DNA of 64,000 bases from Escherichia coli (lineage in GTDB: Bacteria > Pseudomonadota > Gammaproteobacteria > Enterobacterales > Enterobacteriaceae). The stretch lies in assembly GCF_003018235.1 (NCBI RefSeq), contig NZ_CP027439.1. The stretch is one strand, 5' to 3'. Made by a program: the position numbers. This document shows, in pieces, positions 21,001 through 36,000 of the stretch. Every line of letters begins with the position of its first letter. The stretch's first letter is position 1.

Positions 21001-24000
21001 ATACGGACAATAATGCCGATTCCCGTGTGGACCAGCTGTCTGCAGCCCTGAACTCAGCAAAACAGAGTTACGACCAGTACACGACGAATATGACCCGCAG
21101 CCATGAATATGCTGAAATGGCATCCCGTACTGAAAGCATGAGTGGGCAGATGAGTGAAGACCTGTCGCAACAGTTTGCACAGTATGTGATGAAACACGCG
21201 CCGCAGGATGCCGAAGCTATTCTGACAAACACCAGTTCACCGGAGATTGCAGAACGCCGTCGGGCGATGGCATGGTCTTTTGTTCAGGAACAGGTGCAGC
21301 CTGGTGTTGATAATGCCTGGCGTGAATCCCGTGGGGATATTGGTAAAGGAATGGAGAGCGTACCTTCGGGTGGTGGCAGCCAGGATATTATTGCTGACCA
21401 TCAGGGGCATCAGGCCATTATTGATCAAAGAACGCAGGACAGTAATATCCGTAATGATGTAAAACATCAGGTTGATAATATGGTCACAGAATATAAAGGG
21501 AATATCGGAGATACTCAGAATAGTATTCATGGCGAAGAAAATATTGTAGACAGACAATATTCAGAGTTAAAAAATAATCACAAACAGGAAGAAATTCAAC
21601 AAAACAACAGATATAATGAAGAAAATAAACGACAGAAATTAATGCCAACACCGTCTGAAGATGCGTTAAAACAGATGGTGGATGATAAGAAAGAACGATT
21701 GAAGGGGCCATTATGATCACTCACTATGATATAAAAATGGAGATGCAAAAACTAAAGGAGGTACTCTCTGTAGAGGGTGTTAATATCCCATCATTATTAC
21801 AAGTCATAAAACCGGGAACTTATGTGTTTTTATGGGCTTTATTATGGCCAACTTTTCTGCGTTTAGTATCGGTTAAAAGTGATGTCAGGGATGTTGGCTT
21901 TGATATATGTGCTAGTGGAATGATGGGGTTCCTGCTTTTTGTGGCTATTACAAATGGAATGATGTTATACCTTGCGATTCCTGATAGTTTCAGAAAGGAT
22001 TCAAAAATAATAAATTTTATGTATTCTAAGAGTAAGACATATATTTTGTTGTTTTTGATTGTTTTTTCTATGGTTTCATTTATGCATTCTATCTTATATG
22101 TTTTTGCACTAATGATTACATTCATATTATTTTTCTTGGTGTATACCATAGATATAAATCGTTATAATCTCTCAGCTATAGCCTCAGTAATAGGACTGTT
22201 CAAAAAAGAGTCTGTTAGTTAAAAGGATATTTTGGATGAAAACAAAAAAATTGATGATGGTTGCACTGGTCAGTTCCACTCTGGCCCTTTCAGGGTGTGG
22301 TGCGATGAGCACAGCAATCAAGAAGCGTAACCTTGAGGTGAAGACTCAGATGAGTGAGACCATCTGGCTTGAACCCGCCAGCGAACGCACGGTATTTCTG
22401 CAGATCAAAAACACGTCTGATAAAGACATGAGTGGGCTGCAGGGCAAAATTGCTGATGCTGTGAAAGCAAAAGGATATCAGGTGGTGACTTCTCCGGATA
22501 AAGCCTACTACTGGATTCAGGCGAATGTGCTGAAGGCCGATAAGATGGATCTGCGGGAGTCTCAGGGATGGCTGAACCGTGGTTATGAAGGCGCAGCAGT
22601 TGGTGCAGCGTTAGGTGCCGGTATCACCGGATATAATTCCAGTTCTGCCGGTGCCACACTCGGTGTGGGCCTTGCTGCCGGTCTGGTGGGTATGGCTGCA
22701 GATGCGATGGTGGAAGATGTGAACTATACCATGATCACGGATGTGCAGATTGCAGAGCGTACTAAGGCAACGGTGACAACGGATAATGTTGCCGCCCTGC
22801 GTCAGGGCACATCAGGTGCGAAAATTCAGACCAGTACTGAAACAGGTAACCAGCATAAATACCAGACCCGTGTGGTCTCAAATGCGAACAAGGTTAACCT
22901 GAAATTTGAAGAGGCGAAGCCTGTTCTCGAAGACCAGCTGGCCAAATCAATCGCAAATATTCTCTGATTATCTTCCGGAGGCTGGTCTGACCGGCCTCCT
23001 GACTGACGCCTCGCTTTGCTCGTTGTCCAACCCCGGAAAGAAATAAAATAAATTTTATTTCTCCCCGGCGTTTCCGAAATAAATATGAAAACACTGAGCG
23101 GTTGTGCAAATTCTTTGTGCGACCGTGAAGTGTTGCCGGCGAAGCCGGAATTTAACGGTTATTAATCTTTTCATCATTAATAATCAGTCCGACTGACTTT
23201 TTTTCTTCGGAATATCATCATGAGTTTTAACGCAAAGGATATGACCCAGGGCGGTCAGATTGCGTCCATGCGTATCCGCATGTTCAGCCAGATCGCCAAT
23301 ATCATGCTTTACTGCCTGTTTATTTTTTTCTGGATACTCGTTGGTCTGGTTTTATGGGTAAAAATAAGCTGGCAGACGTTTGTGAACGGCTGTATTTACT
23401 GGTGGTGTACCACGCTGGAAGGCATGCGGGATTTAATCAAGTCCCAGCCGGTCTATGAGATCCAGTATTACGGCAAAACCTTCCGGATGAATGCTGCTCA
23501 GGTACTGCATGATAAATATATGATCTGGTGCGGAGAGCAGCTATGGTCCGCATTCGTTCTGGCCACAGTTGTGGCACTGGTTATTTGCCTGATTACCTTC
23601 TTTGTTGTCTCCTGGATTCTGGGGCGTCAGGGTAAACAACAGAGCGAAAATGAAGTCACAGGTGGTCGTCAGCTGACAGACAATCCGAAAGACGTTGCCC
23701 GGATGCTGAAAAAAGACGGCAAGGACTCCGATATCCGGATTGGCGACCTGCCGATTATCCGGGATTCTGAAATCCAGAACTTCTGTCTGCACGGCACGGT
23801 CGGGGCCGGTAAGTCGGAAGTTATCCGTCGTCTGGCCAACTACGCCCGTCAGCGCGGTGATATGGTGGTGATTTATGACCGTTCAGGGGAATTTGTTAAA
23901 AGTTACTATGATCCCTCCATCGATAAGATCCTGAATCCGCTGGATGCCCGCTGTGCCGCCTGGGATTTATGGAAGGAGTGTCTGACACAGCCGGATTTTG

Positions 24001-33000: not shown

Positions 33001-36000
33001 CCTTCAGAACGAAGCCAGACAACAAAAACGTGGGCTCTGGTCAGATGCTGATCCGGTTCCCCCCTGGATATTGAGGCACCGTAAATAAAGCGATGGCAAT
33101 CCTATCATTCATTTGTTCTTAGCGGGAATAAAAATGGCAAAAACAAAACAGGAATGGCTGTATCAGTTACGGCGATGTTCATCAGTCAATACGCTGGAAA
33201 AAATTATTCATAAAAACAGAGACAGTTTATCGACCAGTGAACGTGAATCATTTAATTCAGCAGCAGACCACCGGTTAGCAGAATTAATCACCGGAAAGTT
33301 ATATGACAGGATACCAAAAGAAATATGGAAATATGTAAGGTAATAATTCAGCAATAATTAATTACCAGGAGCAGATAAACAATGAAGCTGATTATTTTTA
33401 TTCTTATTGTTCTGATTATTGCAGCGTTACTTATCCGGATTATCCTCAGAAGTGTAAATCAGCATTCTCCTTTGCTGATGCAATTGCATGCGGCAGGTAT
33501 ACGGACCGGTGATGCAGAGCGAATACTGTCCAGCGGTGAATACTGGCAACGTCAGAAGACGCTGCTGACAGAAAGGGAAGTCAGTTTTATGAAAGGACTG
33601 TTCAGAATTGTGGATATGAAGCGGTGGTATCTGTGTCCGCAGGTACGGGTCGCGGATATCGTCCAGCTGAACGGGAATATCCGGCCACGATCACGCCAGT
33701 GGTGGCAGTTATTCAGGATGGTGTCTCAGTGGCATGTTGATGTGGTTATCGTTGAGCGGCGTTCGTTCAGTATTGTTGCAGCAGTAGAGCTGGATGATGC
33801 CAGCCATTTACGACCGGAACGCAGACGCCGGGATATTCTTCTGGAAGAGGTTCTGAGGCAGGCTGGTATTCCGTTGCTCAGAAGCCACGATGCCAGAAAA
33901 CTGCTGCAGATGACCGGAGAATGGCTGAATACAACAGGGGCTGATCAGCAGTCACCGGAACATCGTAGCTGACGCCTTCGCGTTGCTCAGTTGTCCAACC
34001 CCGGAAACGGGAAAAAGCAAGTTTTCCCCGCTCCCGGCGTTTCTATAACTGAAAACCATACTATTTCACAGTTTAAATCACATTAAACGACAGTAATCCC
34101 CGTTGATTTGTGCGCCAACACAGATCTTCGTCACAATTCTCAAGTCGCTGATTTCAAAAAACTGTAGTATCCTCTGCGAAACGATCCCTGTTTGAGTATT
34201 GAGGAGGCGAGATGTCGCAGACAGAAAATGCAGTGACTTCCTCATTGAGTCAAAAGCGGTTTGTGCGCAGAGGTAAGCCTATGACTGACTCTGAGAAACA
34301 AATGGCCGCTGTTGCAAGAAAACGTCTTACACACAAAGAGATAAAAGTTTTTGTCAAAAATCCTCTGAAAGATCTCATGGTTGAGTACTGCGAGAGAGAG
34401 GGGATAACACAGGCTCAGTTCGTTGAGAAAATCATCAAAGATGAACTGCAGAGACTGGATATACTAAAGTAAAGACTTTACTTTGTGGCGTAGCATGCTA
34501 GATTACTGATCGTTTAAGGAATTTTATGGCTGGCCACGCCATAAGGTGGCAGGGAACTGGTTCTGATGTGGATTTACAGGAGCCAGAAAAGTGAAAACCC
34601 CGATAATCTTCTTTAACTTTGGCGAGTGAGAAAGATTATCGGGGCTAACAAGAAACTGCATAGAAGCTGTTGCTCTATGCGGGGAGTATAGTTATATGCC
34701 CGGAAAAGTTCAAGACTTCTTTCTGTGCTCACTCCTTCTGTGCAACATAAGTGCAGGATGGTGTGACTGATCTTCAACAAACGTATTACCGCCAGGTAAA
34801 GAACCCGAATCCGGTGTTCACTCCCCGTGAAGGTGCCGGAACGCTGAAGTTCTGCGAAAAACTGATGGAAAAGGCGGTGGGCTTCACCTCCCGTTTTGAT
34901 TTCGCCATTCATGTGGCGCATGCCCGTTCCCGTGGTCTGCGTCGGCGCATGCCACCGGTGCTGCGTCGACGGGCTATTGATGCGCTGCTGCAGGGGCTGT
35001 GTTTCCACTATGACCCGCTGGCCAACCGCGTCCAGTGTTCCATCACCACACTGGCCATTGAGTGCGGACTGGCGACAGAGTCCGGTGCAGGAAAACTCTC
35101 CATCACCCGTGCCACCCGGGCCCTGACGTTCCTGTCAGAGCTGGGACTGATTACCTACCAGACGGAATATGACCCGCTTATCGGGTGCTACATTCCGACC
35201 GACATCACGTTCACACCGGCTCTGTTTGCTGCCCTTGATGTGTCTGAGGATGCAGTGGCAGCTGCGCGCCGCAGTCGTGTTGAATGGGAAAACAAACAGC
35301 GCAAAAAGCAGGGGCTGGATACCCTGGGTATGGATGAGCTGATAGCGAAAGCCTGGCGTTTTGTGCGTGAGCGTTTCCGCAGTTACCAGACAGAGCTTAA
35401 GTCCCGTGGAATAAAACGTGCCCGTGCGCGTCGTGATGCGAACAGGGAACGTCAGGATATCGTCACCCTGGTGAAACGGCAGCTGACGCGTGAAATCTCG
35501 GAAGGGCGCTTTACTGCTAATGGTGAGACGGTAAAACGCGAAGTGGAGCGTCGTGTGAAGGAGCGCATGATTCTGTCACGTAACCGCAATTACAGCCGGC
35601 TGGCCACAGCTTCCCCCTGAACCTGACCTCCTCTGAATAATCCGGCCTGCGCCGGAGGCTTCCGCACGTCTGAAGCCCGACAGCGCACAAAAAATCAGCA
35701 CCACATACAAAAAACAACCTCATCATCCAGCTTCTGGTGCATCCGGCCCCCCCCCTGTTTTCGATACAAAACACGCCTCACAGACGGGGAATTTTGCTTA
35801 TCCACATTAAACTGCAAGGGACTTCCCCATAAGGTTACAACCGTTCATGTCATAAAGCGCCAGCCGCCAGTCTTACAGGGTGCAATGTATCTTTTAAACA
35901 CCTGTTTATATCTCCTTTAAACTACTTAATTACATTCATTTAAAAAGAAAACCTGTTCACTGCCTGTCCTGTGGACAGACAGATATGCACCTCCCACCGC

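Follow-up and report, generated by a model that had tools for sequence, protein, structure and literature searches.

Two copies of a module of about 76 nt, and exactly two, are located at 23003-23078 (copy 1) and 33969-34046 (copy 2) of a 64,000-nt stretch of Escherichia coli DNA (contig NZ_CP027439.1 of assembly GCF_003018235.1; the whole 64-kb stretch is referred to as the window). Judged from their sequence, both copies are probably primosome assembly sites (PAS) of the phiX174 type, also termed n'-pas or single-strand initiation sequences (ssi), which would be exposed on the strand transferred during conjugation (T-strand) and would prime the synthesis of the complementary strand in the recipient.

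Identification of the module

Both copies were matched on the minus strand by two covariance models (R1 and R2, filters off), and these models found no third copy in the window. On the minus strand, copy 2 reached 101.4 bits with R1 and 93.2 bits with R2, compared to 23-26 bits on the plus strand; the scores of copy 1 are given in Table 1. The classical F plasmid carries a module identical to copy 1 (L146 27588-27657, minus strand, 74.5 bits). Weak model matches, such as the one at 27526-27599 of L144, are ordinary palindromic terminators and not additional copies of the module. A preliminary description of the window had pointed out two hairpin elements with conserved flanks; both are present, and their borders were refined to the coordinates given above. 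The position directly after a stop codon, which had been ascribed to both elements, applies to copy 2, which overlaps the TGA of the DUF2726 gene, but not to copy 1, which begins 35 nt past the traT stop.

The similarity between the copies is not due to chance, as shown by shuffled sequences and by the copies found elsewhere (see below). The 18-mer GTTGTCCAACCCCGGAAA occurs twice in the window, where 0.07 occurrences are expected with up to three mismatches, and none of 100 shuffles gave two matches. A gapped pattern of 37-39 nt representing the 5' arm also occurs twice, against 0.00 expected from shuffles. The stretches common to both copies are the 5' arm CTGACGCCT(T)CGCKTTGCTC(A), the 18-mer, and the 3' arm CCCGGCGTTTC. 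Outside the module, the flanks of copy 1 and copy 2 are no closer to each other than shuffled sequence.

Hairpin architecture and strand bias

Read on the minus strand, the module consists of a long hairpin (HP1), a linker, a small hairpin (HP2), and a terminal motif (Table 1). The invariant parts are the HP1 base AACGCC...GGGGTT, which copies 1 and 2 have in common with phage phiX174, the linker TTGGACAA, and the end motif CGTCAG. The long stem comprises 16-19 bp; it has 16 contiguous pairs and an AAC/GTT extension in the minus-strand fold, whereas A·C mismatches break it up when the plus strand is folded. Because the G·T/G·U pairs of the minus strand correspond to A·C mismatches on the plus strand (three of each in HP1 of copy 2), the full-length stem is formed in the minus-strand fold only. 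The central palindromes had previously been described as different in sequence and still able to pair. The stems do form, but with the minus-strand fold they are far longer than had been recognized, and HP2, which lies in the 5' arm of the module in plus-strand orientation, was not part of that description.

The fold on the minus strand was more stable than that on the plus strand relative to shuffled sequence for copy 1 (z = -4.9 versus -3.0, RNA parameters) and copy 2 (z = -4.1 versus -0.9), and the same bias was obtained for copy 2 with DNA parameters (z = -3.4 versus -1.5). The pairs of 30 stem variants, 16 pairs each, comprised 407 Watson-Crick cells, 58 cells with G·T/U on the minus strand, three with G·T/U on the plus strand, and 12 others; standard pairing was found in 97.1% of the stem cells, a figure that refers to the minus strand only. 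Among the 38 distinct module variants recovered by scans of genome and metagenome collections, the minus-strand fold was the more stable one in 31. Compensated stems include GGGGAG.../...CTCCCC (L050), AAAG.../...CTTT (L036), and the GTAACA/TGTCAC series, and divergent copies retain a stem of 16-20 bp despite a wholly different stem sequence. HP2 is exchanged for other paired sequences in other types (GACGCC/GGCGTC, ATCCGGC/GCCGGAT, ATCCAGC/GCTGGAT), one example of a compensated change being CCGGC/GCCGG to CCAGC/GCTGG. The hairpin fold is under selection on the minus strand.

Two unusual variants were observed. In the traT-traD spacer of a metagenome contig (L092), the long hairpin is missing and the sequence reads CCGGAAA|TAAATATG, resembling a deletion between short GAAAT repeats; unless the contig was misassembled, this lineage at least can do without the long hairpin. 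Between two divergent modules (L017 7444-7518 and L145 5114-5188), the loop is inverted (GCGAG versus CTCGC), while the 20-bp arms differ by two compensated changes; recombination between the arms seems to have flipped the loop.

Assignment of the transferred strand

The window begins in traJ and does not contain oriT. Since oriT lies outside, the identity of the transferred strand was adopted from the F plasmid and an R100-like plasmid. The sequences GTGGGGTGT/GGTGCTTT in F and GTAGTGTGT/GGTGCTTT in the R100-like plasmid agree with what we take to be the nic consensus sequences of these plasmids, and both are located on the strand complementary to the tra genes. In F, the nic-bearing strand is also the strand on which the module hairpin folds. 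Because nic and the module hairpin share the strand complementary to the tra genes, the sequence identifies the minus strand of the window as the nicked and transferred strand. The orientation of the leading-region genes is the same, and such genes have been described to lie on the T-strand in an orientation that permits transcription from the incoming strand (PMC11541004).

Similarity to the phiX174 primosome assembly site

Model R2, which was built from plasmid copies only, matched only position 2308-2371 of the viral strand of phiX174 (30.0 bits, E~1e-7); no other match in this genome exceeded 10 bits. The site falls in the intergenic space between genes F and G, which we take to be the position of the n'/PriA recognition hairpin (PAS) mapped by Shlomai and Kornberg in 1980. 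The alignment of the plasmid modules and phiX174 has in common AACGCC, a stem with a basal G/G mismatch, GGGGTTG, AC.AA, and GCGAAG. The phiX174 site folds better on the viral strand (-27.9 kcal/mol) than on the other strand (-17.3 kcal/mol), and all members considered here, phiX174 included, fold better on the functional strand. In about 220 kb of plasmid DNA searched as background with filters off, the best score outside the family was 18.8 bits and belonged to a perfect palindromic terminator. The genome of phage G4 gave no R2 match (best 4.2 bits); according to its annotation, G4 has a primase-only origin in the same intergenic slot. Reviews describe the PAS as a hairpin that is bound by PriA on SSB-coated phiX174 single-stranded DNA (ssDNA).

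A BLAST search with the phiX174 region led to 2.5-kb plasmids of the pHW126/pIGMS31 type (82% identity, E = 1e-11), a plasmid family for which a palindromic "ssi" has been described and experimentally deleted. The stretch matched in a Col(IMGS31)-type plasmid, which is the candidate for this ssi, scored 24.0 bits with R2 and has a compensated stem. A site upstream of the rep gene of Erwinia plasmid pEB102 scored 22.8 bits, also with compensated stems.

Distribution and gene contexts

BLAST searches located the module in more than 5000 plasmid records at the least. It was detected in 3034 of 5426 complete E. coli genomes, at 4725 places on plasmids and 29 on chromosomes, with one or two copies per plasmid. 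The assumption of a small family of repeats in which the arms are conserved and the stem varies is thus borne out by the number of records, the 38 variants, and the compensated stems. The family does not coincide with a known annotated repeat: no annotated feature was present at the module across the 5426 genomes, and no Rfam 15 family matched it at the gathering threshold, the matches obtained at E up to 5 being chance hairpins. In many records, the match is confined to the 76 nt, and more than nine unrelated gene contexts show borders that are exact to the nucleotide. Upstream neighbors are traT, the DUF2726 gene, genes encoding DsbA, a 110-aa protein, and a pyocin immunity protein, and FinO-like genes; downstream neighbors are traD, repA2, hok, and a gene for a PLD nuclease. 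The features of the window that surround the two copies are compiled in Table 1. Since traD belongs to the tra operon, copy 1 is situated inside this long operon.

Table 1. Coordinates of the modules, their parts, and associated genes (positions refer to the window unless another record is named; ORF, open reading frame)
Feature	Coordinates	Strand	Remarks
Copy 1, type T1	23003-23078	minus	Between traT and traD; 62.2 bits (R1), 74.5 bits (R2)
HP1 of copy 1	23029-23072	minus	A/T-rich 16-bp stem 23033-23048/23053-23068, 4-nt loop
Copy 2, type A	33969-34046	minus	5'-AGAAACGCCGG-HP1-CCGGGGTTGGACAAC-HP2-GGCGTCAG-3'; between DUF2726 gene and repA2/copB
HP1 of copy 2	33997-34041	minus	AAC/GTT base, G/G mismatch, 16-bp stem 34001-34016/34022-34037, 5-nt loop 34017-34021
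3' part of copy 2	33969-33996	minus	Linker (T)TGGACAA(C), HP2 (CTGAGC...GC(G)TCAG), terminal motif CGTCAG; the complement provides the DUF2726 TGA stop
traT	22236-22967	plus	Upstream of copy 1; ORF with the same 243-aa product as annotated TraT of the F plasmid
traD	23220-25382	plus	Downstream of copy 1; ORF, comparison with the F plasmid
DUF2726 gene	33382-33972	plus	Pfam DUF2726, E = 1.3e-21; stop TGA 33970-33972 within the CTGACG end of the module
repA2/copB	34212-34472	plus	Downstream of copy 2; ORF, annotation of homologous loci
CopA RNA	34589-34678	minus	IncFII replicon, after repA2/copB
repA	34751-35620		IncFII replicon, after repA2/copB
ORFs ending at the module TGA	Window 33970-33972; L034 9936 and 11056; L011 8842; L014 11653		DUF2726; 102/119-aa "MIVPV..." protein; 337-aa protein; 70-aa ORF

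An identical type-A module occurs in three flank combinations, namely DUF2726 gene and repA2 (window), 110-aa gene and hok, and 110-aa gene and repA2 (L001 and L144, the latter being p300709_60, locus 36035-36886). The 76-bp island therefore acts as a recombination joint for cargo beside the IncFII replicon. At least four unrelated ORFs stop exactly at the TGA in the CTGACG end of the module, and none of them continues into it. Such ends could result from selection against reading frames that extend into the hairpin, or from the replacement of genes at the module border.

Several observations concern the surrounding genes. In Klebsiella and Citrobacter plasmids, the module is followed by a gene encoding a secreted PLD-family nuclease. 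At the distal tra end of the window, two nuclease-like genes are adjacent, one encoding an SNase homologue (32567-33088; Pfam SNase, E = 8e-31) and the other the DUF2726 protein, which has a weak restriction-endonuclease-like match. On the minus strand of the window, Rfam matches above the gathering score were obtained for AS-traG, AS-traI, AS-pc02, and CopA at 19610-19695, 28231-28307, 32278-32463, and 34589-34678, respectively; the first three are antisense RNAs first described on plasmid pHK01. The region 54933-62855 contains genes for an MFS transporter, a CMD-family protein, a flavodoxin, an aldo-keto reductase fragment, a zinc alcohol dehydrogenase, and an HlyD-type adaptor. These are accessory metabolic and efflux genes and not a leading region.

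Origin-proximal relatives

A divergent type of the module is present in 286 plasmid records, approximately 370 nt downstream of an IncFII-like repA and on the repA-sense strand. Its HP1 and HP2 stems are compensated, with T·G wobble on this same strand, and it lies 17-21 nt from a homologue of the element at 36220-36281 of the window. Divergent members occupy either a divergent promoter region or, in the opposite sense, a position downstream of repA. The hairpins of the family thus lie on a strand that naturally occurs as ssDNA, which is the T-strand for the copies in the tra region and presumably the lagging-strand template for the divergent type. Because the orientation of the divergent type to transcription is opposite to that of the tra-region copies, the family follows the strands that become single-stranded and not the direction of transcription.

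Downstream of oriR, a multi-hairpin region of about 250 nt is duplicated in the window (36220-36472 and 37469-37716, 1.25 kb apart, 73-90% identity; families D1-D3 of the repeat search). From its position about 400 bp after the DnaA box at 35799-35807, we take it to be the G-site of R1/R100, a primase-only priming signal. The alignment of the 36220-36281 element with the G4 origin was unconvincing. Judging from a CTG located 3' of its hairpins, the presumed G-site seems to work on the minus strand, i.e., the T-strand. Between oriR and the presumed G-site, an inverted pair (GAATGTTGTAACTA / TACAACATC) is located at 36165-36195, which matches what we assume to be the Tus-binding Ter core (GTTGTAAC). 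In other IncFII-like and IncR plasmids, this slot is occupied by the divergent PAS-like module instead. A degenerate module was considered upstream of the presumed G-site (36104-36215) and rejected, the hairpin there being the inverted Ter-like pair.

Other element classes

Further classes of elements were compared with the module and rejected. An Frpo-type ssDNA promoter does not fit a stem of 16-20 bp with freely variable sequence and no promoter hexamers, and a consensus scan revealed no promoter-like site at the module. For a primase-only ssi of the G4 type, the CTG is present in some types only, the conserved 3' motif is CGTCAG, and the G4 genome was not matched. Comparison by eye revealed partial likeness to the CTG start of DnaG, to a DnaA box (TTGTCCAAC versus TTATCCACA), and to a Ter site (GTTGTCCAAC versus GTTGTAAC), none of which is conserved across the types. 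The likeness to Tn3 inverted repeats (CTGACGC..TCAGT) is a coincidence; in L017, the transposon end is 80 nt away.

Discussion

If the modules are PAS on the T-strand, the following course of events can be envisaged. The long hairpin would persist on the SSB-coated single-stranded T-strand, together with its base, the linker, the second hairpin, and CGTCAG, and this structure would be recognized by the PriA of the recipient. PriA, PriB, and DnaT would load DnaB-DnaC, followed by primase. The phiX174-type primosome reportedly travels 5' to 3' on its template, as found by Arai and Kornberg in 1981. A mobile primosome would accordingly move towards the DNA still entering and lay primers for a discontinuous complementary synthesis. 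Copy 2 would enter just before the tra region of about 33 kb and copy 1 after traD-traI, and the two together would cover the third of the plasmid that arrives last. In the tra mRNA, a hairpin with A·C mismatches is plausibly weak, which would let transcription read through. We propose a wider picture more tentatively, at somewhat less than even probability: a pair of PriA-loading sites at the rep/tra border and after traD-traI would allow a primosome trailing the entering DNA to convert the tra region to duplex, the G·T stems would reconcile this function with read-through of tra transcription, the element, recruiting host factors and shared with phiX174 and small plasmids, would have been exchanged between phage and plasmids, and the 76-bp island would serve as a joint for the reshuffling of cargo near the replicon.

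Several points weigh against the assignment as conjugative PAS. With 30 bits and a gapped linker (GGACAAC versus GACCAAG), the modules resemble phiX174 to a moderate degree, and since it is poorly defined what PriA requires for recognition, such a resemblance does not guarantee activity. No member of the R2 family was found in F coordinates 1-50 kb, where primosome sites near ori2 of mini-F are presumably located. If those sites exist, PAS sequences are heterogeneous and the modules form one family among them, because R2 misses these sites. The tra-region copies are co-oriented with their neighbors, and the polarities of transcription and of the T-strand coincide there and are not fully separable. 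Homologues of the presumed G-site appear to lie on the same strand at a distance of only 2-3.5 kb, in which case a second priming signal would be partly redundant. The ssi of pHW126-type plasmids has been reported to be dispensable for replication, and the current conjugation literature credits priming in F to Frpo and RNA polymerase.

The most serious competitor, though an improbable one, is that the modules are PAS elements for vegetative replication or PriA-dependent fork restart and do not take part in conjugative synthesis. The divergent relatives reside beside IncFII-type origins on the presumed lagging-strand template, plasmids of the pHW126 and ColE1 types use their ssi and PAS, respectively, in vegetative replication, and copy 2, which is 1.8 kb from oriR, would be on the lagging-strand template of any leftward fork. 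However, IncFII replication is unidirectional and proceeds away from repA. A fork crossing the tra region would therefore use the minus strand as leading-strand template, with the hairpins on the wrong strand for a vegetative role. Moreover, copy 1 is 12.8 kb away from oriR and conserved in F, the main replicon of which is elsewhere, and the tra-region copies are all on the transferred strand.

The preliminary description had also considered that the copies share a function in termination or RNA processing. An element of this kind, acting as plus-strand RNA at the 3' ends of the traT and DUF2726 genes in termination, RNA processing, or stabilization, would agree with the position of both copies after a stop codon, with their co-orientation with the flanking genes, and with the weak GUUUCY following the stem; a 1987 paper, judging from its title, reportedly dealt with "terminator activities" of the traS-traT region of F. 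We consider it very unlikely. Consensus scans and folds revealed no intrinsic terminator at either module on either strand, and neither of the sequences following the stem (CGUUUCY on the plus strand, GGUUGGAC on the minus strand) is a U-tract. The plus-strand fold of copy 2 is weak (z = -0.9), the stem has A·C mismatches on the mRNA strand, and the 58:3 asymmetry of the wobble pairs indicates the other strand. The module is also found within operons, between traT and traD and elsewhere 22-37 nt before the start codon of a PLD gene (37-nt gap in DsbA-module-PLD), and the divergent members are in a divergent promoter region or in the opposite sense downstream of repA. Finally, a terminator would leave the conserved 5' arm of 30 nt without a role. 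The modules are not terminators, and the earlier suggestion is abandoned in view of the missing U-tract, the position in operons, and the wobble bias. This corrects a tempting mis-annotation, and the asymmetry between G·T and A·C can be used to decide which DNA strand a hairpin belongs to.

A separate GC-rich hairpin (GGAGGCTGGTC-T-GACCGGCCTCC) at 22977-22999 lies between the traT stop (22965-22967) and copy 1, with no U-tract following it. All its pairs are Watson-Crick pairs except one, a G·U when the plus strand is folded; this bias is opposite to that of the module. Because of the strand on which this pair forms, the hairpin is the more likely candidate for the true 3' hairpin of the traT mRNA.

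A functional, structured antisense RNA transcribed from the minus strand of the module would have the observed G·U pairs in its stem, and antisense RNAs are documented in the tra region, including the Rfam matches AS-traI, AS-traG, and AS-pc02 in the window. This possibility nevertheless appears remote, given that no conserved promoter exists, the upstream sequence on the minus strand differs in every context, and a minus-strand terminator and an Rfam match are missing. The packaged strand of phiX174, which is known to function as ssDNA, has the same architecture and asymmetry, and the origin-proximal relatives have the opposite sense to the neighboring genes.

Equally doubtful is a mobile or site-specific recombination element, similar to an attC cassette boundary or to repetitive extragenic palindromes (REP) and miniature inverted-repeat transposable elements (MITE), that moves or exchanges neighboring genes: the nucleotide-sharp borders in more than nine contexts, the three flank combinations of the identical type-A module, the unrelated ORFs ending at its TGA, the fit of GTCCAAC to the integron box RYYYAAC, and the folded bottom strand, as in attC, are set against a 3' partner box (GTTTCY) that is not complementary beyond AAC/GTT, the absence of target-site duplications, duplicated flanks, and meaningful terminal inverted repeats, the one or two copies per plasmid with 29 chromosomal versus 4725 plasmid places, mosaics such as L011 that break outside the module, and the fact that ordinary homologous recombination in the conserved 76-bp island accounts for the reassorted flanks.

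A function as PAS on the T-strand would bear on how the bulk of an F-like T-strand is converted to duplex in the new host. Nomura et al. reportedly obtained eleven ssi from F and R100 in 1991 with an origin-defective M13 vector, and the modules may already be among them. The motif strings of the module had no match in the literature text searched, and the recent conjugation literature examined does not mention the modules. They belong to a known kind of signal, of which they are new or at least unannotated and at present overlooked representatives. For priming, the recent reviews and live-cell studies examined mention no signals other than the Frpo hairpins in the leading region, and one of these publications states that even the priming role of Frpo awaits proof in vivo. 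A published recipient screen concerns RP4 and not F. A PriA-type site on the T-strand in more than half of the complete E. coli genomes is a concrete candidate that can be deleted. Should the assignment hold, PriA, PriB, and DnaT of the recipient would be involved in conjugation. The covariance model itself links the phage PAS, the ssi elements of small plasmids, and large conjugative plasmids.

Comparison with known priming signals

Among known systems, the PAS of phiX174 shares with the modules AACGCC, a long stem with a basal G/G mismatch, GGGGTTG, a short linker (ACCAA in phiX174, GGACAA in the modules), GCGAAG with a small second hairpin, and G·T wobble on the functional strand only. It differs in the linker, in the sequence of stem and loop, and in the 3' motif (CGGTAG versus CGTCAG of the module). 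Furthermore, phiX174 keeps a GA/GA internal loop, where the F-like copies have paired bases; this loop is retained in the relatives L148, L009b, and pEB102. The phiX174 site is part of a packaged phage genome, whereas the modules are carried by a conjugative plasmid strand and their activity is predicted. The candidate ssi of the pHW126/pIGRK/pIGMS31-type plasmids falls into the same sequence family (82% identity with the phiX174 site, 24 bits) and is much nearer to phiX174 than the F-like modules are. Unlike the modules, it is situated at a rolling-circle/theta origin and affects multimer formation and copy number.

The PAS of ColE1/pBR322, located on the lagging-strand template, would belong to the same functional class, a PriA-recognized hairpin on an exposed ssDNA strand, which is what we predict for the modules; compared by eye, the two are not known to be related in sequence. 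Reviews place this PAS near the plasmid origin. The G4-type G-site of phage G4 and R1/R100 is likewise a hairpin signal on ssDNA for complementary- or leading-strand priming, but it depends on primase alone and has three hairpins and a CTG start on the 3' side, whereas the module has no conserved CTG. The Frpo/ssi ssDNA promoters in the leading regions of F and ColIb resemble the modules in being strand-specific T-strand hairpins whose activity is limited to the single-stranded phase of the plasmid in the recipient. In Frpo, a stem of about 300 nt in the leading region rebuilds the -35 and -10 boxes for RNA polymerase, whereas the module has a variable stem of 16-20 bp without promoter hexamers and is located in or beside the tra region.

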